Below, piece after piece: positions 7,504 to 20,641 of a DNA stretch of 64,000 nt. Under the pieces are notes generated by a model. It saw only the letters and a program-made list of their open reading frames with translations, was not told where the DNA came from and did no database searches. The translations under genes were made by a program, and so were the position numbers. Source of the DNA: Candidatus Latescibacterota bacterium (GTDB lineage: Bacteria > Latescibacterota > UBA2968); the NCBI GenBank assembly GCA_965222605.1, contig OZ244960.1:3808001-3872000 (forward strand), written 5' to 3'. The number at the start of each line of letters is the position of its first letter. The first letter of the stretch is position 1.

Positions 7504-8358
7504 ATGGACGCGAGATGTTTGGATTATTGCGTGACGGAAGAGGAGCGGTTGAAGTTTGAGCGCGATGGGTTTTTGATAATTGAAGATGTGTTGCCAGAGG
7601 ATCTGGTAGATGAGTTGGTTCCCGTTGTAGATCGGGTGGATGGCGCGCATCGGGAGCGAGAGGGCATGGGGCCAGATAAGCGGTCCAATATGCTGGATTT
7701 TATCGGCCATGACGATTTGTTTTTGGAATTGCTCGATTGGTACAAGACATTTCCAAAGGTATGGGGGTTGCTGAATTGGAATATTCAGCTTTACCATTCT
7801 CACATGATTGTGACGCCTCCTGTTGGTCCTGGAAAATCGCTTGAGAAGGATGGACCGGGGCTTGGGTTTCACCAGGATAGCGGTCGCCTCAATCTCGATA
7901 TTGAGACGAGTCCGCGTCCGAGGATTTCGCTGAAGGTGGCGTTCTTTTTGTCGGATGCCTCACAACCCGGTCGCGGGAATTTTGTTGTGGCTCCCGGTTC
8001 GCATCTGGGCAATGTGTTTCCGGGCGAAAGTCGCTCAGAAATGCCCGAGGGCGGTATGCAGGTGTGTGTGCCGAAAGGCAGTGCGGTTATTTTTGATCGG
8101 CGTATCTGGCATTCGAGCAGTACCAATTATTGGGATTCGCCCAGGCGAACGCTGTTTTACGGCTATAGCTATCGCTGGTTGCGGCCCCGCGATAATATGA
8201 CGGTGGATCACTTTTTGGAGCGTTGCGATCCCATTCGCCAGCAGTTGTTGGGGGCGAGTCCTTCGGGTGGTTTTGGCTATACGTCGCCCAAACCCCAAGA
8301 TGTGCCTTTGAAGACGTGGATCGAAGCGCATGTGGGTGAAAAAGCGGTGGCGGCTTAA
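7504..8358 (+). CDS. PhyH family dioxygenase
   Basis: FERDGFLIIE, FHQD, PGSH, FDRRIWH. Confidence 0.85.
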   Translation: MDARCLDYCVTEEERLKFERDGFLIIEDVLPEDLVDELVPVVDRVDGAHREREGMGPDKRSNMLDFIGHDDLFLELLDWYKTFPKVWGLLNWNIQLYHSHMIVTPPVGPGKSLEKDGPGLGFHQDSGRLNLDIETSPRPRISLKVAFFLSDASQPGRGNFVVAPGSHLGNVFPGESRSEMPEGGMQVCVPKGSAVIFDRRIWHSSSTNYWDSPRRTLFYGYSYRWLRPRDNMTVDHFLERCDPIRQQLLGASPSGGFGYTSPKPQDVPLKTWIEAHVGEKAVAA

Positions 8359-8696
8359 GATGATTGTGTCTGCAGGATATCAGCGAGTGTATCGGTTGTC
8401 CATTGATTGATGCTTTTTCCGCTGACTTCAGCAGCTATGGCAATTGCTGCGTGAACTTCTGGTGGAAGGCGCAACATCAGATTTCCAGAATAGGGCTTTT
8501 GTGGAGGGCGATTTAATTTTTCACAGGTTTCGAGATAATCCTCTACGGCTTCTTCAAAAGCGGTACGCAGTTGTGCCACTGAATCGCCATGGAAACCTAC
8601 GATATCGTTAATGCCCGCTATGTGACCAATAAAGCAATGGTCTTCATCGCTGTATTCAATGCGAGCCGCACATCCTTTATGTGTCATAGTATTCAT
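8355..8696 (-). CDS. hicB: Type II TA antitoxin HicB
   Basis: ARIEYSDED..FIGHIAGINDIVGFHG, AVEDYLETC..PQKPYSG..LRLPPEVH (RNase-H-like + RHH); overlaps hicA. Confidence 0.92.
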   Translation of the reverse strand: MNTMTHKGCAARIEYSDEDHCFIGHIAGINDIVGFHGDSVAQLRTAFEEAVEDYLETCEKLNRPPQKPYSGNLMLRLPPEVHAAIAIAAEVSGKSINQWTTDTLADILQTQSS

Positions 8697-8947
8697 GGTG
8701 TTATTCCCGCTTGTAGTAGAAAGCGTTTGGCATCACGCACTTGATATGGCTTTGCCTCTTTCTGGGGATGAGGACGATGAAAAGTAGCGACAACGCGATT
8801 CAGTTCAAATCTCACGCGCGAACCTCTGCCTTCAATAGTTCTGGCTCCAAGTGCTTTGAAAAGGGATTCGATACGCCGCCATTCCAATGTGGAGGGAACG
8901 GGCGTTCTGAAGATATCGTTTAAGGTGTTCTGGTGACGTCTGTTCAT
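8693..8947 (-). CDS. hicA: Type II TA toxin HicA
   Basis: 84 aa; EGRGSRVRF..FHRPHPQKEAKPYQV signature. Confidence 0.92.
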   Translation of the reverse strand: MNRRHQNTLNDIFRTPVPSTLEWRRIESLFKALGARTIEGRGSRVRFELNRVVATFHRPHPQKEAKPYQVRDAKRFLLQAGITP

Positions 8948-9794: not shown

Positions 9795-11261
9795 ATGTCC
9801 GATAGACCCAATATTATTTTTATTTTGACTGATCAACATCGGTTGTCGGGCGTGGGTGCTTATGGCGAGACGCCATGCCGAACGCCCAATATTGATCGCC
9901 TTGCGGCAGAGGGCGTGTTGTTTGAAAATGCTTATACGGTTTATCCTGTGTGTAGTCCGGCTCGTGGTACGTTGCAAACCGGCGTGTATCCACATACCCA
10001 TGGCATTACGTCAAATATCCACGAGGTGGGGTGTAGTGTTCACGAGTTAGAGGATCGGCCCGAACTTTTGTCGCGGCGTCTGCAAGCGGCGGGGTACGGG
10101 ACGGGATATACGGGAAAGTGGCATCTCGGCTCTGAGAAGACACGGACATTTCAGGGGTCTAACAGGCCGTCTTCGCCTTCGCGTATCGGGTATGAAGGTC
10201 AGGATTTTGTCGGGCATGGCGGGGCTGGTTCGAGCTATTCGGATTATCGGGCATGGGCGCGGGCAAAGGGTTATGAGCCGGGCGTGAAGCCCTGGGCTGA
10301 GGCGACTACGAGGGTCCGCAATGGAGTCGGTGAGTTGACTGTGCCAACTGAGGCGACTGTGCCGGCTTATCTGGTGGATAATGTGATTGAGATGAGCAGG
10401 TCGTTTCGGGGACGGGATTTGCCATATTTTGTCAGTTTGAATTTTTGGGGACCACATGGACCGTATCACGCGACGGGTGAGTTTCTGGACTGGTATCGGG
10501 ATGTGGAGATTCCGCCGTGGGGAAATTACGAGTGGCCCTCGCGGGAGATTCCCGGTCCGCATCATTTGAAGATTCACTGGGATAAGGAAAATTTGACGTG
10601 GGAAGATTGGGCAATGGCGGTGCGCTATTATTATGCGCGGGTGTCGATGATTGACAGTCAGATTGGTCGGCTGTACGATTATTTGAAGGCGAGTGGGGAA
10701 TTGGATCATACGGTTCTGATTTTTACGGCGGATCACGGCGAGACTCTGGGCAGTCACGGGGGGTTGCTGGATAAGGGATGGCATCATTTTGAAGAGACGC
10801 ATCATGTTCCGATGATTATTCGGCTGCCGGATGGTTCGCATGCGGGCGAGCGCGTTTCAGAGTTTGCTTCGCTGGCTGATATGTATCCCACGATTTTGGA
10901 TCTGGCTGGTGGACATTACGATGGGGATGCGATTCACGGTGCGTCGCTGTTGCCGCTTGTTCGCGGTGAGGCGACGGCTTGGCGCGATGCTGTGGTGACT
11001 GAGTTTTTGGGTTTGGGCAATGTCGCTACGTCGATGAAAATGCTGCGTATGGGAGATTTAAAATACGGGTGTAATTTGACGGGGCAGGACGAGTTGTACG
11101 ATCTGGCAAATGATCCCTATGAGATGAATAATGTGATTAGTGATCCCGATTATGCCGATGATGTGGTGCGATTGAAGGCGCGATTGCAGCAGTGGATGGT
11201 GGAGACAAATGATCCGGCTTTGCGAATGTATCGCTGGCGCGAGCGAGAGGCGATTGGATAG
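9795..11261 (+). CDS. Sulfatase (Cys-type)
   Basis: PNIIFILTDQHR, VCSPARGTLQTG, GKWHLG, FTADHG, ELYDL..DPYE. Confidence 0.9.
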   Translation: MSDRPNIIFILTDQHRLSGVGAYGETPCRTPNIDRLAAEGVLFENAYTVYPVCSPARGTLQTGVYPHTHGITSNIHEVGCSVHELEDRPELLSRRLQAAGYGTGYTGKWHLGSEKTRTFQGSNRPSSPSRIGYEGQDFVGHGGAGSSYSDYRAWARAKGYEPGVKPWAEATTRVRNGVGELTVPTEATVPAYLVDNVIEMSRSFRGRDLPYFVSLNFWGPHGPYHATGEFLDWYRDVEIPPWGNYEWPSREIPGPHHLKIHWDKENLTWEDWAMAVRYYYARVSMIDSQIGRLYDYLKASGELDHTVLIFTADHGETLGSHGGLLDKGWHHFEETHHVPMIIRLPDGSHAGERVSEFASLADMYPTILDLAGGHYDGDAIHGASLLPLVRGEATAWRDAVVTEFLGLGNVATSMKMLRMGDLKYGCNLTGQDELYDLANDPYEMNNVISDPDYADDVVRLKARLQQWMVETNDPALRMYRWREREAIG

Positions 11262-11323
11262 GACTTTTGATTCTCATCCGCTATCCTGTCTATACTGTGG
11301 TATTGCACAAAGGAGAGATTCCC

Positions 11324-11614
11324 ATGCGAAAACAAATTATTCAATATACTTCGCCCATTGATGCACTGGTTGCAGTGACAAAGCGGTTGAGTACCTATGA
11401 GAGTCGGCAGCAGATGGACTCGGAGGAGTTCTTTGACCAGTATAGCCGGGGACAATTGTCAGATGACATTGTATTTGTAGAGTGGGCGAACGATTATCGC
11501 CACTATTTAGAACTCCGTCAAAAATTAGAGAAAATCCTGCCCGATACTGTGATACCCTCGGACAAACCAGACATTGATCAAATAATAAAAGAAGCTGAAG
11601 AGGCACGCAGGTAA
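11324..11614 (+). CDS. Small antitoxin-like protein (TumA-like), no adjacent toxin
   Basis: AGGAG RBS; LSTYE....MDSEEFF..Y..G.L.DD..FVEWA..Y pattern matches my recollection of TumA-type antitoxins. Confidence 0.6.
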   Translation: MRKQIIQYTSPIDALVAVTKRLSTYESRQQMDSEEFFDQYSRGQLSDDIVFVEWANDYRHYLELRQKLEKILPDTVIPSDKPDIDQIIKEAEEARR

Positions 11615-11637
11615 ATGGATAATGCGATGGAGGTGTT

Positions 11638-12111
11638 ATGAAAAAAAATAAGGATTGGCGAAATCAGGGAGTGCGGGTGGTGACGGGTGATCAGTTGGAT
11701 TTTAATACGCCGCAGACGCCGGGGATGACGCGGGCCGCGGCGATTAATCGCGCGAGTGCGGGTGCTGAAAAGCTGTGGGCGGGTACGGTTGAGATTCATC
11801 CGAATGCAAAGACCGGCGCGCATCATCACGGGGCACTGGAGAGTGTGATTTATGTGGTGCGCGGCAGGGCGCGCATGCGATGGGGCGATCAGTTGGAGTA
11901 TGTGGCAGAAGCGGGACCGGGTGATTTTATCTATGTGCCGCCTTATGTGCCGCATCAAGAGATCAATGCCAGCAAAGATGAACCTCTGGAATGCGTGCTG
12001 GTGCGCAGCGATCAGGAGCCTGTGGTGGTGAATCTGGATATTCCGGTTGTTGAAGAACCCGAGAACGTGTATTGGGTTGATCCGATACATCCGGATCCGA
12101 ACACTGATTGA
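11638..12111 (+). CDS. Cupin domain protein (RmlC-like)
   Basis: TGAHHHGALESVIYVV.G and GDFIYVPPYVPHQEIN cupin motifs. Confidence 0.85.
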   Translation: MKKNKDWRNQGVRVVTGDQLDFNTPQTPGMTRAAAINRASAGAEKLWAGTVEIHPNAKTGAHHHGALESVIYVVRGRARMRWGDQLEYVAEAGPGDFIYVPPYVPHQEINASKDEPLECVLVRSDQEPVVVNLDIPVVEEPENVYWVDPIHPDPNTD

Positions 12112-12122
12112 CGAGGCCGTTT

Positions 12123-15100
12123 ATGGCAGATCAATTTTTTGAACATCCCATCCTCAATTCTCCCTACTACTGTCCAACGCGGCACTGGGAACTTGACGAT
12201 CAGGGCCAGCCAACACAGCGCATTGTTGAAAGCCGGCGGCGTGCAGATTTTATCACGCCTATTCCAAAGCCGAAGAAGCGCGGGGCGTCGAAGCGTCAGC
12301 AGCAGATTGTCTTTGACGAGGGTAAGGGACTATCTACTGAGGATCAGCAGTACGATGTTACGGCGATGGTAAATGAGATTCGGCGGCATGTCGATGGATG
12401 GCGAAGTCTGCCAAATCCCAATGATTGGCGTGTGACACCCGAAACCGCGCGTTTGCTCGTGCATTGGAGACACCATCACTTTAGCGATATTCGCCCGTTT
12501 TTCTGTCAGATTGAGGCGGTTGAGACAGCCATTTATCTGACTGAGGTCGCGCCAAATTTGGGGCAGTTGGGAAGGCGTTTAAGGGATCATCTTGCCAATG
12601 CCAATAATGACGCCAACCCGGAACTTATGCGCCTGGCACTGAAGATGGCTACCGGTGCTGGCAAGACCACTGTTATGGCGATGATTATTGCCTGGCAGAC
12701 AATTAACGCGGTGCGGCATCCCAATAGCAGAAGGTTCACGCGGGGGTTCCTGGTCATGACTCCCGGCATCACAATCAAAGATCGCCTGCGCGTACTTTTG
12801 CCCAATGATCCGGATAGCTACTATGCGAATCGAGAGTTGGTGCCGCAGGACATGCTCGGCGACCTCGACCGCGCTAAGATTGTCATTACCAACTACCACG
12901 CGCTGAGAAGGCGCGAAAGAATAGAGATTTCCAGAGGGGGTAGAGGACTTCTGCAAGGGCAGGGACCCGCACTCAATACGATGGAGACCGAGGGGCAGAT
13001 GATTCAGCGGGTTATGCCTGAGCTTATGGGTATCAGAAATATCAATGTGCTCAACGACGAGGGACACCACTGCTACCGGGAGAAGGTGGAAAAAGATGAT
13101 GAAGGACGGTTGACGGGAGACGACCGGCAAGAAGCAAATAAGAACAACGAGGCCGCCCGTGTGTGGATTTCAGGACTTGAGATGGTCAAGCGCAAGCTGG
13201 GTATCAGGCAAGTTATGGATTTGTCAGCGACGCCCTTTTTTCTTCGCGGGTCGGGCTATGCCGAGGGGACGCTGTTCCCATGGACGGTGAGCGATTTTTC
13301 GCTGATGGACGCGATTGAGTGTGGTATTGTCAAACTACCGCGTGTGCCCGTGGCTGACAATATACCCGGTGGAGATATGCCCAAGTTCCGCAATTTGTGG
13401 GATCACATCGGCACCGATATGCCCAGAGGAGGACGCCGCACAGCAAATAATCTCGATCCTTTAAGCCTACCCGTACCGTTGCAGACCGCGCTGGAGGCTC
13501 TCTATGGTCACTATGAGAAGACTGACGCATTGTGGGAAAAAGGCAAAGTGCTCGTTCCGCCCTGTTTTATTCTGGTTTGCAATAACACCTCAACCTCGAA
13601 GTTGGTCTATGATTACATATCGGGTTTTTACCGCGAGAATGAAGATGGTTCGAAGATGCTGGAGAATGGACGCTTGCCGCTGTTTCGCAACTTCGACGAG
13701 GTTGGTGACCGCCTCCCCATTCCCCCTACTTTGCTGATAGATAGCGAACAACTGGAATCTGGCGACGCTCTGGACAAGAATTTCCGCAAGATGGCTTCCG
13801 ACGAGATCGAACGCTTTCGCAGGGAGATCGTCGAGCGCACTGGCGATGTTCGCCAGGCCGAAAATATTACGGATCAGGATTTGCTTAGAGAGGTGATGAA
13901 TACAGTAGGCAAAGAAGGCCGGCTCGGTGAGTCTATTCGCTGTGTTGTATCGGTTTCCATGCTCACTGAGGGTTGGGATGCCAACAATGTCACTCATGTT
14001 CTTGGCGTGCGGGCTTTTGGAACGCAACTTTTGTGCGAGCAGGTTATTGGTCGCGCGTTGCGCCGCCAGTCTTATGATTTGAACGCGGACGGTCTGTTTG
14101 ATGTCGAATATGCCGATGTACTGGGGATCCCGTTTGATTTCACTGCGAAGCCAGTCGTTGCGCCGCCGCAGCCACCGCGGAAGACTGTCCAGGTCAAGGC
14201 GGTTACGCCAGAACGCGATGGGTGCGAGATTCGCTTTCCTCGTGTGGCGGGTTATCGGGTTGAGCTTCCGAGGGAGAAACTCAGGGCAGATTTTACCGAT
14301 GATTCGACACTGATACTCACGCCCGAACTCGTTGGGCCAACCAATACGAGAAACGAGGGTATCATTGGTGAGGGGGTCAATCTGAATCTTGAGCGTCTGG
14401 AGTCCATGCGTCCGGCCACGCTGGCGTTTCGCCTCACCAAGCATCTGATCTATACGAAGTGGCGCGATTCGGGCGAGGAGCCATCGTTGAATTTGTTCGG
14501 CCAGTTCAAGCGGATAACGAGCGAATGGCTGGATACTTGTCTCGTTTGCAAGGGCGGAACGTATCCGGCGCAGCTTGTGTACCAGAAACTGGCAGATATG
14601 GCTTGTGAGCGCATCAAAGACGCTATTAACCGCACACACATTGGCGAGCGTCCTATCAAGGTTCTGTTCGATTCCTATAACCCGATGGGTTCGAGCAGGC
14701 ATGTGAATTTCAGTACGTCCAAAACGAGGCGATGGCAGACCGATTCTCGTAAGTGTCACGTCAATTGGGTCGTTCTGGACAGCGATTGGGAGGCCGAGTT
14801 TTGCCGCGTGGCTGAGTCTCATCCGAAGGTGCAGGCTTATGTGAAGAATCACAACCTGGGGCTGGAGGTTCCCTATCGCTACGGTTCCAATACGCGCACG
14901 TACATTCCCGATTTCATTGTCCTGGTGGATGATGGGCAGGACGATCCCCTGCACCTCGTCGTCGAGATTAAGGGCTATCGCGGTGAGGATGCCAAGGTGA
15001 AGAAAAGCACGATGGAGACCTATTGGGTCCCCGGTGTGAATGGTCTTAGAGAATATGGACGCTGGGCCTTTGTCGAGTTTACGGATGTGTATGAGATTGA

Positions 15101-15269
15101 AAAGGAGTTCAACACGCTCATTGATCGCTTCAGTATCAGCGCAATAGGCACGCAGCCACGGGATGCTAAGACTTCTAATTTCAAAGATTTACTGGCATCC
15201 TGCCCGATTGATGGGATTGATATTGATCAGCTTCGTACGCGCGAATTGCCACGCGAGATTGAGTTGTAA
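12123..15269 (+). CDS. res: Type III restriction enzyme Res subunit (BPTD_3080-like: SF2 helicase + PD-(D/E)xK nuclease) with extra antitoxin-like C-terminal tail
   Basis: ILNSPY start, MATGAGKT (Walker A), NDEGHH, LSATP, MLTEGWD, EQVIGRALRR, YIPDF..VEIKG nuclease; tail NFKDLLASCPIDGIDIDQLRTRELPREIEL. Confidence 0.88.
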   Translation: MADQFFEHPILNSPYYCPTRHWELDDQGQPTQRIVESRRRADFITPIPKPKKRGASKRQQQIVFDEGKGLSTEDQQYDVTAMVNEIRRHVDGWRSLPNPNDWRVTPETARLLVHWRHHHFSDIRPFFCQIEAVETAIYLTEVAPNLGQLGRRLRDHLANANNDANPELMRLALKMATGAGKTTVMAMIIAWQTINAVRHPNSRRFTRGFLVMTPGITIKDRLRVLLPNDPDSYYANRELVPQDMLGDLDRAKIVITNYHALRRRERIEISRGGRGLLQGQGPALNTMETEGQMIQRVMPELMGIRNINVLNDEGHHCYREKVEKDDEGRLTGDDRQEANKNNEAARVWISGLEMVKRKLGIRQVMDLSATPFFLRGSGYAEGTLFPWTVSDFSLMDAIECGIVKLPRVPVADNIPGGDMPKFRNLWDHIGTDMPRGGRRTANNLDPLSLPVPLQTALEALYGHYEKTDALWEKGKVLVPPCFILVCNNTSTSKLVYDYISGFYRENEDGSKMLENGRLPLFRNFDEVGDRLPIPPTLLIDSEQLESGDALDKNFRKMASDEIERFRREIVERTGDVRQAENITDQDLLREVMNTVGKEGRLGESIRCVVSVSMLTEGWDANNVTHVLGVRAFGTQLLCEQVIGRALRRQSYDLNADGLFDVEYADVLGIPFDFTAKPVVAPPQPPRKTVQVKAVTPERDGCEIRFPRVAGYRVELPREKLRADFTDDSTLILTPELVGPTNTRNEGIIGEGVNLNLERLESMRPATLAFRLTKHLIYTKWRDSGEEPSLNLFGQFKRITSEWLDTCLVCKGGTYPAQLVYQKLADMACERIKDAINRTHIGERPIKVLFDSYNPMGSSRHVNFSTSKTRRWQTDSRKCHVNWVVLDSDWEAEFCRVAESHPKVQAYVKNHNLGLEVPYRYGSNTRTYIPDFIVLVDDGQDDPLHLVVEIKGYRGEDAKVKKSTMETYWVPGVNGLREYGRWAFVEFTDVYEIEKEFNTLIDRFSISAIGTQPRDAKTSNFKDLLASCPIDGIDIDQLRTRELPREIEL

Positions 15270-15679
15270 TGTTCTTACTCGATACCAATATCATCTCGGA
15301 AATACGCAAGGGCGACCGCTGCGATGGGCGGGTTGCAACTTGGTATGCCGGTATCAAGGGAGCCGATCTATTTCTCAGCGTGCTGGTGACCGGCGAGATT
15401 CGCAAAGGAATAGAGTTGATCCGCGATCGAGATTTACAGCAGGCAGAGGCTTTGGAACGCTGGTTGCAAGAGGTCTTACAGTCATTTTCTGGACGCATTC
15501 TGCCAATTGATGCCAAAGTTGCTGACACTTGGGGCCAGATGAACGCCATCCGGCCTATTCCTGTTATTGACGGCCTTTTGGTCGCCACTGCCAAAGTGCA
15601 TGACATGACTTTGGTGACACGCAACTCTGACGATATTAAAGGCTTAAGTGCAAGTGTGCTTAATCCATTCAGCGAGTAA
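15269..15679 (+). CDS. vapC: PIN-domain toxin VapC (FitB-like)
   Basis: MFLLDTNIISE, GEIRKG, IDGLLVATA, LVTRN..D; acidic catalytic residues present. TAATG overlap with the res stop codon. Confidence 0.9.
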   Translation: MFLLDTNIISEIRKGDRCDGRVATWYAGIKGADLFLSVLVTGEIRKGIELIRDRDLQQAEALERWLQEVLQSFSGRILPIDAKVADTWGQMNAIRPIPVIDGLLVATAKVHDMTLVTRNSDDIKGLSASVLNPFSE

Positions 15680-15737
15680 TATCGCCAGAATCGTTTTTAG
15701 TTGGACTCATAAGGGACAAGAAGTAAAGGTAATCAGG

Positions 15738-15836
15738 ATGAATAGAGATGAGATATTGACTCTCCTTCGAGCGCAACCGTGGGAATGGATCAAGCCGGGT
15801 TTGTCACCGACACACTCACTAAGCAAGGATATGTAG
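15738..15836 (+). pseudogene. N-terminal remnant of a minimal nucleotidyltransferase (MNT-type antitoxin)
   Basis: MNRDEILTLLRA matches the typical MNT start, then diverges before the LFGS motif and stops. Confidence 0.45.
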
Positions 15837-18536
15837 ATGGCTAAACGTAGATCACCTAAAACTGTCACCACTATCCGGCACAAGGACGCATCACGAAAAA
15901 ATATCCCCACTGCCGAACACCAGCCACTCATGCGCGAGGAGGAGCAGACCCCTATTCCCCGTACCTATGCGCGACGCAACCGCGATCTCGATCCCCAATT
16001 GGTGTGGCGCGGCAAGGATGAGCAGGATTGGTCAGATTTGGTGGTACAGGCACCACCTCTGTACATTCAGGAGAAGGTCCATCCCAAGGTGCTAATCGAC
16101 GATTTGGTGCGCCGAAGCGAAGAAGACGCTGCGAGTGAGTCGGGCTTCCAGACGGACCTCTTTGCCGATTTCAATGGCTTGCCTTCGGAGGACGCCAAGA
16201 CCGAGTTCTACCAGCACGAGGCCAACTGGTCGAATCGCATGATCCTCGGCGATAGTTTGCAGGTGATGGCGTCGCTGGCAGAGCGCGAAGGACTGCGCGG
16301 CAAGGTGCAGTGTATCTACATCGATCCACCTTATGGGATTAAGTTCAATTCCAATTTCCAGTGGTCAACCACCAGCCGCGATGTGAGAGATGGTAAAGCC
16401 GAGCATATTACTCGAGAGCCAGAGCAGGTGAAAGCGTTTCGGGATACCTGGCGGGATGGGATTCATTCATACCTGACGTATCTGAGGGATAGACTGACGG
16501 TGGCGCGGGATTTGTTGACAGAGAGTGGGTCGGTGTTTGTGCAGATTGGGGATGAGAATGTGCATCGGGTGCGGGCTGTGATGGATGAGGTGTTTGGGGA
16601 GGAGAATTTTCTTTCATTAATTAGCTTTCAAACCTCTACAGGTAGGACTGCTGCAACACTTGATTCCGTAGCCGACTATCTCCTTTGGTATGCGAAAGAT
16701 CCGAGTTCAATCAAGTTTCGACAATTGTTTACAGTAGGAGAGGCTTTTAGATCTTCAGGTGAGGATTACCGCGGCAGATATGAGCTAGGAGACTTAACAT
16801 CCCAACATCCTAGCCAGACACGTAGCGTCGAAATTAGCTTTCGTGGTGAGTCCTTTTGGCCCTCGGCAAATAGGCAGTGGGCATTCGACCCGGAACGGAT
16901 AAATAGATTAGAAGCTGCCGATAGGGTAGTCAGATTTAGTTCCAGGCAGATTCGGTGGAAGAAGTATGAATTTGAACGTGCCAGAGGGAAGCTTAATAAT
17001 GTTTGGCCTGACACACAATTTGGAGCCTTCGCAAGCGATAAGATTTACGTTGTACAAACGAATCGCAAGGTCATTGAACGCTGCATCCTCATGACTACCG
17101 ACCCCGGCGATCTCGTTCTTGATCCAACTTGCGGCTCCGGCACAACCGCGTACGTCGCCGAGCAGTGGGGCCGTCGCTGGATTACCATTGACACTTCCCG
17201 CGTCGCGCTGGCACTTGCTCGTGCTCGTATCATGGGCGCTCGCTATCCCTACTACTTGCTTTCCGATAGCCGCGAGGGGCAGATCGAGGAGGCTGAGATA
17301 GAACGCCGGGCACCCTCGGAATCGCCGACCTATGGCAACATCCGCCAGGGTTTCGTGTACGAGCGCGTGCCCCACATCACCCTTAAGTCCATTGTCAATA
17401 ACGCCGAAATTGACGTGATTTGGGAGGCGTTTCAGGAGAAGTTGGAGCCTTTGCGCCAGCAACTCAATGAGGTTCTTGAGAAGAAATGGGAAGAGTGGGA
17501 GATTCCGCGCGAGGCTGAGGATGATTGGTCCAAACGCGCAAAGGATTTACATGCCGACTGGTGGAAGCAGCGGATCGCGCGGCAAAAGGAGATTGACGCA
17601 TCTATCGCAGCTAAGGCAGACTATGAGTACCTCTACGATAAGCCTTATGAGAACTCGCGGAAGGTGCGCGTTGCGGGGCCGTTTACTGTTGAGAGCATTT
17701 CGCCCCATCGCGTGCTATCAGTGGATGAGAACGACGAGTTCATTGAAGATGTCGAAGAAGCAAAGACCGGCTACGATTTCGCCCAGGTCATTCTGGATAA
17801 TCTGAAGACTGCGGGCGTCCAGCAGGCGCATAAGGAAGATCGGATTGCGTTTACGTACACTACGCCATGGCCAGGTGAGATGGTTTGCGCCGAGGGGCGT
17901 TATGCCGAAGGTGCGTCTGAGAAACGTGCAGGTATTTTCGTCGGGCCGGAGTTCGGTACTGTGTCTCGTCCTGACCTGGTGCAGGCTGCGCGGGAGGCTG
18001 CTGATGCGGGTTTTGATGTGCTGGTCGCTTGTGCCTTCAACTACGACGCACACACGACGGATTTCGAACGGCTGGGGCGCGTCCCGGTGCTCAAGGCGCG
18101 CATGAATGCCGACCTGCACATGGCCGATGACTTGAAGAATACAGGTAAGGGAAATTTGTTCGTTATTTTTGGTGAGCCGGATATCGACATACTGGATGCC
18201 GAAGATGGACAGATACAGGTGAAAGTAAATGGGGTGGATGTGTTCCACCCAAATACAGGAGAGGTTCGCAGCGATGGCCCGGAGGGTATCGCCTGTTGGT
18301 TTATTGATACGGACTACAATGAGGAGAGTTTCTTTGTGCGCCACGCTTATTTTCTCGGTGCCAGCGATCCGTACAAATCGTTGAAGACTACGCTCAAGGC
18401 CGAGATCAACGCGGACGCCTGGGCCACGCTCAAAAGCGATACTTCTCGTCCCTTTGAGAAGCCCGCATCTGGACGCATCGCTGTCAAGGTCATCAACCAC
18501 TTGGGGGATGAGGTGATGAAGGTTTTCAGGGTGTAA
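15837..18536 (+). CDS. mod: Type III R-M methyltransferase Mod (beta-class amino-MTase)
   Basis: NRMILGDSL, IYIDPPY catalytic motif preceding DPTCGSGTT SAM-binding motif; C-terminal IAVKVINHLGDEVMKV. Confidence 0.9.
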   Translation: MAKRRSPKTVTTIRHKDASRKNIPTAEHQPLMREEEQTPIPRTYARRNRDLDPQLVWRGKDEQDWSDLVVQAPPLYIQEKVHPKVLIDDLVRRSEEDAASESGFQTDLFADFNGLPSEDAKTEFYQHEANWSNRMILGDSLQVMASLAEREGLRGKVQCIYIDPPYGIKFNSNFQWSTTSRDVRDGKAEHITREPEQVKAFRDTWRDGIHSYLTYLRDRLTVARDLLTESGSVFVQIGDENVHRVRAVMDEVFGEENFLSLISFQTSTGRTAATLDSVADYLLWYAKDPSSIKFRQLFTVGEAFRSSGEDYRGRYELGDLTSQHPSQTRSVEISFRGESFWPSANRQWAFDPERINRLEAADRVVRFSSRQIRWKKYEFERARGKLNNVWPDTQFGAFASDKIYVVQTNRKVIERCILMTTDPGDLVLDPTCGSGTTAYVAEQWGRRWITIDTSRVALALARARIMGARYPYYLLSDSREGQIEEAEIERRAPSESPTYGNIRQGFVYERVPHITLKSIVNNAEIDVIWEAFQEKLEPLRQQLNEVLEKKWEEWEIPREAEDDWSKRAKDLHADWWKQRIARQKEIDASIAAKADYEYLYDKPYENSRKVRVAGPFTVESISPHRVLSVDENDEFIEDVEEAKTGYDFAQVILDNLKTAGVQQAHKEDRIAFTYTTPWPGEMVCAEGRYAEGASEKRAGIFVGPEFGTVSRPDLVQAAREAADAGFDVLVACAFNYDAHTTDFERLGRVPVLKARMNADLHMADDLKNTGKGNLFVIFGEPDIDILDAEDGQIQVKVNGVDVFHPNTGEVRSDGPEGIACWFIDTDYNEESFFVRHAYFLGASDPYKSLKTTLKAEINADAWATLKSDTSRPFEKPASGRIAVKVINHLGDEVMKVFRV

Positions 18537-18934: not shown

Positions 18935-20641
18935 CCCGACTAATTCATGAACTGTAATGGTTGGGGTTGTTTGTCAGGCGGCATCGGTTCCAAGCATCAA
19001 AATGAGGGTGCTTTCTATCTTGTCTGCCGTCATAGGCGTCTTCATAGAGTTCAAGCAGCCCAAATCGTCCCCTGACAGGCTCTGCCAGTGTCAAAAGTAC
19101 AGACCGGTCCCTTGCCAGTCCTGTCTGTGGATAAGTCCGTGTATTTGTAAAGTCAGCAAGTGATGGGACAGACCCCTATTCCTTCCCCGTTGATGGGTTA
19201 TGGCACCGCCTTTGCCAGATTGCACAGGATTTTATCAAAAAGGTGTGGCAATGGAAATGACATAGGCAGATGGAAGGTGATCTTTGTTTTCAACTCACAG
19301 ACGCGTCCGGCGACTTTAAGGAAACGATTTTGGAGGGTATTGACCTGTGCGTTTATCCACGTTGTGCCTTGTAATCCGATGTGCGCTAAGGTGTGCAACA
19401 AGACATAGGCAGCCGAATGGAGGAAGAGGCGGAACTGATTGGCTCCAAAAGCGTGACAGGACGTGCGGTCTGAGTGGAGAAAGGTTTTGTGATTTTTAAT
19501 GAAGTTTTCCATCTGTCCGCGCGCACAATAGATATTTTGGTAGATAAAGGAGGCCCTTGAACTTTCAAGGTTGGTCACGACAAAGCGTGTGTTTTGGCCT
19601 CGGGTGGTGATTTCAGCTTTGCATAAGATGCGTCTGGCACAGGCCCAAGTCTGGGCTTGGTAATAAAATGAGGTAAAAAGTCGCACGGGCTTGCCGGTTT
19701 GTGCATAAAGGCTTTTGGTCTGATCCATCAGGGGCTTTGAAAGGGCTAAGAGTCGGGTATTGGCACTTTGTCCGAGGATAAAAAAGAGGTCCTTTGTCGC
19801 ACAAAAGTCCTGGACTTCTGGACTTGAGAAGTGGGCATCGCCTCGCAAAAAGAGTGCCACCTTTGGCCAAGCCTGACGAATATAAGCGACTAACCGCTTG
19901 AGAATGGTGACAATCTGTTTGCCATCAGGACGCACACCCGGACGTAAAATCGTCGTGATTAGCTTGCCCGATTGCCCTTCATAAATATGCAAAGGCTGGT
20001 AGGAGTAGGCACCCAAATACCCATTGAATAAGGACAACTGCTGCGTCCCATAAACCCTATCCTGCGTATCATCAATATCTAAGATGATCGACGAAGGCGG
20101 CTTTTTATACGAAGCAATAAAACAATCGACAAAGGCACGAGCAACGCGATACAAATCGCTTCTGCTCATCTGATTCTCAAACCGACTCATCGTGGGTTGA
20201 CTGGCCAAGTTCTCACCACTTATGGGCAAGCGATCACAGGCAACCTTGAAGCCGGGATCGCTGCGTAAGGCATTGCAATCATTGGCATCTTCATACCCAC
20301 AGGCAATTTGAAACACGCGCTGTTTGATCAACTCTGCCGTGCTATGCGCCACATAACTTTGATGCCGATGGTCTTTAATCGCGCGACTCAAACGTGATAA
20401 AATACCCGTTTTGGCCTCCACTTCTCGAAGCAATAAGGCTCCGCTATCGCTGGTGAGAATACCCCCATCAAAGGCGAGGTTGAGACGTTTGCCGAAAATG
20501 CTTGCCAAAGGAACCTTGCAATGATTATCTTGTGTGCTCACGGTAGTTTCTCCCAAGTTCATTGTTCAATGGTTATGCGTATAACCTAATATAATACAAT
20601 AACTTGAATAGGGAAACTACCTTTTTTATGAATTTTTCGGG
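18935..20641 (-). mobile_element. IS1380 family insertion sequence, 1707 bp
   Basis: Terminal IRs CCCGACTAATTCATGAA / CCCGAAAAATTCATAAA (14/17); TTAG target duplication at 18931-18934 and 20642-20645. Confidence 0.9.
19198..20562 (-). CDS. IS1380 family DDE transposase
   Basis: FDGGILTSDSGALLL, GYEDANDC, LASQPTMSRFEN, LDIDDT, LRGDAHF, YCARGQMENFIK. Confidence 0.93.
   Translation of the reverse strand: MNLGETTVSTQDNHCKVPLASIFGKRLNLAFDGGILTSDSGALLLREVEAKTGILSRLSRAIKDHRHQSYVAHSTAELIKQRVFQIACGYEDANDCNALRSDPGFKVACDRLPISGENLASQPTMSRFENQMSRSDLYRVARAFVDCFIASYKKPPSSIILDIDDTQDRVYGTQQLSLFNGYLGAYSYQPLHIYEGQSGKLITTILRPGVRPDGKQIVTILKRLVAYIRQAWPKVALFLRGDAHFSSPEVQDFCATKDLFFILGQSANTRLLALSKPLMDQTKSLYAQTGKPVRLFTSFYYQAQTWACARRILCKAEITTRGQNTRFVVTNLESSRASFIYQNIYCARGQMENFIKNHKTFLHSDRTSCHAFGANQFRLFLHSAAYVLLHTLAHIGLQGTTWINAQVNTLQNRFLKVAGRVCELKTKITFHLPMSFPLPHLFDKILCNLAKAVP

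Follow-up and report, generated by a model that had tools for sequence, protein, structure and literature searches.

The C-terminus of a restriction endonuclease as the putative antitoxin of an overlapping vapC gene in a Latescibacterota genome

What keeps a VapC toxin in check when no antitoxin gene stands beside its own? This question is raised by a res-vapC-mod locus in a stretch of 64,000 nucleotides (nt) from Candidatus Latescibacterota bacterium, referred to below as the window; coordinates are positions in the window unless a locus handle precedes them, and the genome from which it comes is labelled G000. Here, the gene for Res, the restriction endonuclease of a type III-class restriction-modification (R-M) system, runs on in frame into a short tail and shares the last base of its stop codon with the start codon of vapC. 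The initial annotation had suggested that Res may be the antitoxin, and this idea is well supported in silico by the homology of the tail to antitoxin C-termini, by the co-occurrence of tail and vapC in other genomes and by a model of the complex. We consider it probable that Res is the cognate antitoxin of the VapC encoded by the overlapping gene, and its only antitoxin in the genome, with the last ~30 residues forming a working peptide of the VapB/FitA type. The features on which this reading is built are the following.

12123 (ATG; an alternative TTG at 12108 is open) to 15269, + strand: Res open reading frame (ORF), 1048 amino acids (aa) from the ATG, C-terminal end NFKDLLASCPIDGIDIDQLRTRELPREIEL.
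12123 to 15119, + strand: Res core, a ResIII helicase and a PD-(D/E)xK endonuclease of the BPTD_3080 family (NCBIfam NF046055; Pfam ResIII, RE_endonuc).
15120 to 15176, + strand: variable linker from the nuclease domain to the toxin-binding motif, unconserved in alignments A1 and A3 (described below) and outside the family model.
15177 to 15266, + strand: predicted antitoxin-type toxin-binding peptide NFKDLLASCPIDGIDIDQLRTRELPREIEL, in frame with Res; its motif is common to free antitoxins and Res clusters and lies in the interface of the model.
15267 to 15271, + strand: TAATG, overlap of the res stop and the vapC start, read directly from the sequence; translational coupling is presumed.
15269 to 15679, + strand: VapC/FitB-like PIN toxin, 136 aa, with catalytic acidic residues D5, E43 and D101 intact (Pfam PIN, 5e-14; FitB, 2h1o).

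Res matches the model of the BPTD_3080 family of restriction endonucleases (NF046055) with 1351.7 bits against a cut-off of 800, and the alignment is end to end, pairing residues 6-999 of the 1048 with positions 1-969 of the 970 in the profile. Because this match stops at residue 999, the last 49 residues (15120-15266) constitute an extension beyond the family, which agrees with the earlier observation that the ORF continues past its nuclease domain. The TAA of res (15267-15269) and the ATG of vapC have one base in common, the toxin gene is intact and no separate antitoxin ORF lies between the two, all as first described. The tail was also said to lack an in-frame ATG with a Shine-Dalgarno sequence; it contains neither an in-frame ATG nor a GTG, and the nearest in-frame starts, ATG 15012 and GTG 15036, are both within the nuclease domain.

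The nearest solved relative of the 136-aa product of vapC is FitB (2h1o, E 4.4e-17). Across 11 relatives there is no variation at D5, E43 or D101, and D122 is conserved in at least 90%, so that VapC carries the acidic catalytic residues of PIN toxins of the VapBC/FitAB class, whose usual target is initiator tRNA. The resemblance to this class (FitB, 2h1o and 2bsq) extends to the arrangement: a peptide is encoded immediately upstream of the toxin, here by the 3' end of res, with overlapping stop and start codons; the active site is covered in the model; and the free-standing relatives of the tail are ordinary small antitoxins. What differs is the carrier. Antitoxins of this class are small and autoregulate their operon through a DNA-binding domain at the N-terminus, a ribbon-helix-helix (RHH) in FitA. 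Here, by contrast, the putative peptide (Res residues 1019-1048) forms the end of a restriction endonuclease of 1048 aa, and no RHH, Phd or helix-turn-helix (HTH) domain was found in Res.

Where, then, does the tail come from? No Pfam or NCBIfam family matches it alone and, before a profile was available, a comparison of the tail with proteins of near its length was uninformative, giving only P0001, a 77-aa C-terminal piece of a near-identical Res. The regions upstream of VapC relatives were more telling. Among 80 loci fetched by VapC similarity, the window tail was matched (tblastn) in seven, L020 to L025 and L027, a set that covers all six loci with a VapC identity of at least 54%. In each of the seven the stop of the peptide overlaps the VapC start, by TGATG in L021-L025 and L027. 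The peptide ends a Res in L020 and L023, a DUF2283 ORF in L022 and small proteins in L021, L024, L025 and L027; thus, next to the closest VapC relatives (54-66% identity in L021, L022, L024 and L025; 45% in L027) it is found on small proteins. The N-termini of these small carriers vary, with RelB in L027, DUF2283 in L022 and no recognised domain in L021 (by Pfam) or in L024 and L025 (by reading), and DUF6364 carries the peptide in an ORF of another genome (G018) and in database matches. Upstream of remoter VapC relatives (47% identity or less) stand antitoxins of the Phd/YefM type, in which the motif is kept more loosely.

Ten tail sequences were aligned (A1) and used as a search profile. Their motif reads [ND]FK[ED]LLA[SA][CA]P..G.DL..R....PR.[IV].[LF], in which F17, K18, L21, A22, P25 and R41 (A1 numbering) are invariant. 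It had been expected that a search with the tail alone would find the C-termini of antitoxins, and this is what the profile retrieved from 1.84 billion representatives: 242 proteins at E<=1e-3, 27 of them at E<=1e-10, the best 150 of the 242 all being 38-204 aa long, with the match in most rows at or close to the C-terminus. Against longer proteins, 206 of 8000 scored candidates matched at E<=1. Of these, 120 were listed: 35 are proteins of 962-1126 aa in which ResIII and/or RE_endonuc domains are found, a further 6 are pieces of Res and the remainder are small proteins, some with DUF6364, RelB, HTH or DUF2283 domains. Among the matches listed, the tail stands on at least 34 Res clusters of 962-1057 aa, with 38-93% tail identity; in the thirty-fifth long protein, P0104, the motif is internal. 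The motif starts exactly 27 residues before the end in 29 of the 34 fused proteins and in 140 of 197 free ones, and the consensus is identical in both. Judged by these matches, the tail is homologous to antitoxin C-termini.

In the window genome the profile finds the Res tail at E 1.2e-20 and has no second match, the next value being 0.17. An active VapC would therefore have Res as its sole candidate antitoxin of this kind in the genome, and the label of orphan VapC given by the initial annotation is apt. A scan of metagenomes with the profile returned a small sample of four loci, two of which have VapC directly after the tail ORF; in the other two, no VapC was detected at E<=1e-3 within the 288-500 nt present.

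The peptide also occurs in three settings of a different kind. A Dehalococcoidia locus (L025:1968-3731, + strand) has a GmrSD type IV restriction enzyme immediately followed by a tail-VapC pair. In P0106 a single 210-aa ORF unites a tail-bearing antitoxin with VapC. In G018 (L016:4998-5324, - strand), a DUF6364-type antitoxin with the motif lies directly downstream of mod, its ORF extending 16 residues beyond the motif, and no VapC was found in that genome.

Would the tail bind this VapC? The complex was modelled from VapC (11-row alignment A2) and the last 45 residues of Res (alignment A3), as the initial annotation had proposed, and the model passed its controls: three runs scored ipSAE 0.82, 0.81 and 0.82, against 0.01 for the best of 3 controls. 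In calibration, the 0.82 mark was attained by 58 of 80 solved complexes and by 2 of 110 mismatched pairs. The runs share at least 87% of their contacts, with a partner pLDDT of at least 64. In the predicted interface, tail residues 16-40 meet VapC residues 4, 6-7, 43-44 and 96-101, residues that lie beside the catalytic D5, E43 and D101; the model thus supports a placement of the tail over the VapC active site. A prediction of the last 250 aa of Res (8-row alignment) had a mean pLDDT of 43.9, too poor to place the tail, and was not used. We judge it quite probable that the tail binds and neutralises VapC.

A further question is whether tail and toxin travel together. In Latescibacterota, the Res family occurs in 62 of 168 genomes and the tail only in G000, G019 and G020; VapC is present in G000 and G019, and G020 retains the first 10 nt of vapC. 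In Dehalococcoidia (401 genomes, 59 with a match, of which the best 30 loci were read), VapC stands at the stop of 6 of 6 tailed Res and of 0 of 24 untailed Res, so the suggested co-occurrence of tail and vapC in other lineages is borne out there. The VapC start is placed 0, +3 or -10 nt from the stop of these tailed Res, and mod follows ~450-480 nt further on. On a tree of Res cores with 76 rows, the tailed state needs six changes, at least three of which are forced by well-supported branches, and the deepest Res clade (62% identity to the window) is tailed. The fusion recurs and is not a one-off.

The junction itself is also present in G019, in G020 (as far as base 10 of vapC) and in Dehalococcoidia genomes, and contig X3, from a DNA run of another study, spans 15156-15472 with the junction included. 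A misassembly was considered and is rejected, on account of these other species and of the independent contig. As for transcription, the metatranscriptome contig X16 bridges the junction (15151-15378) with G019-like alleles, one extra base and a depth of 2.7, which we take as a weak hint; the RNA contigs X15, X16 and X19 cover only parts of the stretch, in small shares, and gaps in their cover carry no weight. A scan of the + strand from 15000 to 15900 found no promoters or terminators, a weak result in that counts were no higher than in shuffled sequences.

If Res is the antitoxin, vapC would be translated through its coupling to res at the TAATG, and each VapC would be captured on the C-terminus of a Res with its active site covered. 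Since the DNA-binding half of an antitoxin is absent, the pair would be expressed with the res-vapC-mod operon instead of through autoregulation. Restraint of VapC would then need a steady supply of full-length Res, and the RNase could be freed by a frameshift or premature stop in res or by loss of the locus, or in the course of an infection in which Res is depleted, proteolysed or inhibited. The antitoxin would lie at the very end of a 3-kb ORF, so any truncating mutation in res would remove it and the cell would be addicted to an intact res. Given that Res is the antitoxin, such addiction has, in our estimate, somewhat less than an even chance of being what the arrangement does; it is somewhat likelier than a back-up by phage-triggered abortive infection, which we regard as doubtful and which is compatible with addiction.

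The alternative that survives best accepts that the tail neutralises VapC and takes the fusion for a by-product of gene shuffling, with no guard or addiction benefit. A deletion would have brought res into one reading frame with the 3' half of an antitoxin gene; from then on survival would require the tail, hence its persistence. We think this unlikely, and it explains the data almost as well. To weigh it, the rest of the locus has to be considered.

15738 to 15833, + strand: N-terminal part of what was probably once an MNT (nucleotidyltransferase) antitoxin gene, a weak assignment from a single-comparison match.
15837 to 18536, + strand: Mod, a type III-class DNA methyltransferase (PADLOC MTase_III PDLC03632, 1363 bits; Pfam N6_N4_Mtase, 2.5e-33).

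The partner methyltransferase of a BPTD_3080-family R-M system is thus present, with mod after res in the same operon. This order is also seen in annotated plasmid records and in the surveyed loci of other genomes, and in two of the annotated plasmid records a small hypothetical gene lies between res and mod. A survey of the gap downstream of Res (loci L007-L015 and L104-L165; 15680-15836 in the window) yielded 128 ORFs of at least 66 aa, among which are PIN (11), HepT (9), MNT (9), HicB-like (5), DUF6883, DUF4926 and DUF2283 (4 each), Phd/YefM (3), and HicA, ParE and FitA-like RHH (1 each) families. In 17 surveyed loci mod adjoins res at a distance of at most 36 nt; elsewhere the gap holds cargo. 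The res-mod gap of this R-M family is a toxin-antitoxin shuffling hotspot.

Toxin-antitoxin genes dominate this cargo, as the shuffling account would have it, and the 17 loci in which res and mod adjoin accord with it as well. So does the exchange of cargo among close relatives: in G020 (L017:5685-8620) the tail is intact and homology to the window continues to the first 10 bases of vapC, after which a cassette with a Fic/DOC gene and a 476-aa ORF without Pfam match has replaced the toxin gene; no VapC was found anywhere in this genome (95% complete) at E<=1e-5. Stacked relics tell in the same direction, P0274 being a Res whose first tail is cut short and followed by a second, different one, and P0104 having its tail followed by an 80-aa extension, and in L022 the tail sits on the separate DUF2283 ORF in the same position. 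The window genome itself holds a second res-mod system of the same family (L019, G000:C1:5860000-5872000; 74% identity), untailed, whose gap contains an MNT gene (NTP_transf_2), a 162-aa ORF without Pfam match, a VapB gene and a truncated PIN gene; positions 15738-15833 match this MNT gene with 13 of 23 identities (E 1e-5 in a single comparison, a weak match). With a gap full of toxin-antitoxin cargo and tails able to outlive their toxins, the fusions probably arose by deletion and recombination in the hotspot. The initial annotation had named accidental fusion at such a hotspot as a real alternative to its own proposal, and the gap cargo and relic tails let it stand as an account of origin.

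Two small overlapping ORFs that have a HicB/HicA-type look by eye lie at 8355-8947 (- strand) in the window, and downstream of mod a 454-aa ORF (19198-20562, - strand) has the look by eye of an IS4-family transposase.

Against a mere by-product stands the fact that the fused form, with its motif intact, has been retained across Res lineages down to 62% identity, and that antitoxin modules of three kinds have been fused to Res. In L124 (1852-2662, + strand) and L126 (- strand, same layout), the Res ORF continues as an in-frame MNT nucleotidyltransferase domain (7.9e-13), and its end overlaps a HepT RNase gene (6.8e-24), behind which lies mod. Judged by these domains, Res-MNT/HepT is a second, independent Res-antitoxin fusion. 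The MNT-HepT (HEPN) pairs are like the tail-VapC pair in occupying the same res-mod position and in having their antitoxin fused to Res in these two loci; they differ in their toxin and antitoxin folds, and MNT is an enzyme, not a binding peptide. In L113 (1972-2498, + strand), Res ends in an unrelated tail (...WLADAGG..PQI..IPRRRSEL), and a PIN gene of a different family begins 3 nt on; L127 (- strand) has this second tail without a PIN gene.

The second tail is not confined to Res, which also speaks against a by-product of shuffling in one gap. Its profile finds 25 proteins at E<=0.01 (P0261-P0285), always with the tail at the extreme C-terminus: 13 Res, 9 Eco57I-like, 2 Schlafen-like and 1 with TIR domains. 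In G018 (L016:1227-4864, - strand), it forms the C-terminal end of a 1092-aa Schlafen/AlbA_2 protein whose gene overlaps one for a PIN protein. None of the 11 Eco57I-like loci read in the 401 Dehalococcoidia genomes has it. Persistence in deep Res lineages, the conservation of the residues that are invariant in free antitoxins and the existence of three independent kinds of fusion argue, from the sequences, that the arrangement is kept for a reason; the recurrence of fusions suggests selection and is no proof of it.

Several observations weigh against Res as the antitoxin. Given the hotspot, fusions could form by deletion and become locked in without benefit. Toxin-less tails in G020 and L127, and the tails run on into other sequence in P0274 and P0104, mean that the presence of a tail is no proof of current function. 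The fused tail is absent from all 30 loci read in the class Vicinamibacteria (301 genomes, 51 with a match), where VapC occurs only in L140, in the same place as in L022, with the tail on a separate ORF; and none of the 39 plasmid records with the Res family reaches the tail. Of the rows of the tree, the 35 Res from databases were picked because they are tailed, and rows with known context offer 2-3 phylogenetically independent contrasts for the co-occurrence, for which a sign test (p 0.5) has no power. VapBC/FitAB complexes have already been solved, and the success of the model may partly reflect resemblance to these, although the tail profile matches no PDB sequence at E<=10. Between the window and G019, 7 of 49 tail codons differ, 3 of them synonymously and 4 with a change of residue; for the core the count is 87 of 999, so no extra constraint is seen at short range. 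Finally, the binding, toxicity and neutralisation of VapC are all matters that we infer.

The comparison with G019 has its own complication. Over 11001-16700 the divergence between the two is a mosaic, in which stretches of 450-600 bases with zero differences (13201-13800, 15223-15674) adjoin others where as many as 20 differences fall within 200 bases. This pattern suggests recent recombination between species and, since the region is a recombination mosaic in G000, G019 and G020, a signal of selection is unreadable at such range.

A second alternative, in which the tail is an inactive relic and VapC is harmless because it is untranslated, inactive or held in trans by an unrelated antitoxin, is very unlikely in our view. 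The relic tails of G020 and L127 show that such leftovers occur, the window genome has two VapC paralogues with antitoxins of their own (41% and 36% identity), and stand-alone toxins are described as common in genomes (PMC3632139). However, the catalytic residues of VapC are invariant, only 1 of its 136 codons differs between G000 and G019, the motif residues F17, K18, L21, A22, P25 and R41 are invariant in A1, and the Phd-type antitoxin of a VapC paralogue is not matched by the tail profile at E<=1. A small, separately translated antitoxin of 77-85 aa with the tail, made from an internal start in res (ATG 15012 or GTG 15036), is hardly credible: a gene caller gave such a 77-aa protein on another contig (P0001) and an AGG-rich stretch lies upstream of ATG 15012, but that Met belongs to a conserved block of the nuclease domain common to untailed Res, 13 of 34 tailed Res, the window's clade included, lack a Met in the span from the nuclease end to the motif, and the product would open with a fragment of the nuclease fold.

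How does Res as an antitoxin for VapC compare with what is known? The idea that defence systems and toxins are linked is not new. In a comparative genomics proposal of 2012, immunity loci carry toxins without typical antitoxins, and immunity proteins may restrain them (PMC3506569). The PrrC RNase, encoded within the EcoprrI type Ic R-M operon, is proposed to be held inactive by the R-M proteins until restriction is disabled (PMC3506569, PMC3710099). PrrC combines an ABC-ATPase with a HEPN anticodon nuclease and is associated with Hsd subunits without a recognisable antitoxin peptide; unlike this, the window has a PIN toxin, a type III-class R-M system and, as predicted, an inhibitor that is an antitoxin module fused to Res. 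There is no ABC-ATPase plus HEPN protein in a type Ic hsdMSR locus here, and the likeness is one of logic only.

Closer in form are HEPN toxin domains fused to restriction subunits, which the authors read as a coupling of immunity and suicide (PMC3710099), and PIN genes beside type I R-M genes, for which 'antitoxin elements' are said to be 'missing' (PMC5499597). As in the window, an RNase toxin is physically linked to an R-M nuclease subunit. In those cases, however, the toxin is the fused or adjacent part and the antitoxin is missing, whereas here the antitoxin is the fused part. According to the same survey, from 2017, no direct interaction between toxin-antitoxin and R-M systems had been shown (PMC5499597). 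CreTA, a toxin-antitoxin pair of RNAs through which cells become addicted to the CRISPR Cascade, shares the concept that a defence effector is needed to keep a toxin silent and that its loss is lethal (PMC9458426); it consists of RNA parts under transcriptional repression by Cascade, and not of two proteins, one of them a covalent fusion. The initial annotation knew of no description of the present architecture, and an antitoxin module fused to a restriction subunit was not found in the literature searched either; supplements were outside this search, and cases of this kind may appear in Supplementary Figure S7 of PMC5499597 or among the supplementary tables of PMC3632139. The name 'BPTD_3080' appears in no paper of the literature searched.

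At the level of this R-M family, the finding means that a link between restriction-modification and a toxin is legible in sequence, in that a restriction endonuclease carries in frame the peptide that free antitoxins carry for VapC. The long-standing hypothesis that immunity and toxins are linked thereby becomes experimentally simple to address. It also matters for annotation, since toxins whose antitoxin is hidden in a large neighbouring gene look like orphans. The recurrence of the arrangement, on at least 34 Res clusters, with MNT/HepT and with a second tail and PIN, suggests a general insurance of defence genes against loss or inhibition. Tentatively, and at less than even odds, antitoxin-tailed defence enzymes may form a general class, in which PIN-binding peptides or MNT are grafted onto the C-termini of defence proteins, so that the enzyme would be the antitoxin and the toxin its guard. 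Its carriers would be Res, Eco57I-like enzymes, Schlafen/AlbA_2 ATPases and a TIR protein, the second tail (...WLADAGGS.P....IPRRRSEL) being unrelated to the first. If such a class exists, a phage that inhibits or degrades the enzyme would set off the toxin, as would a truncation or loss of the enzyme's gene, and these fusions would be direct molecular evidence for immunity-suicide coupling, in which immunity components inhibit the toxins associated with them.

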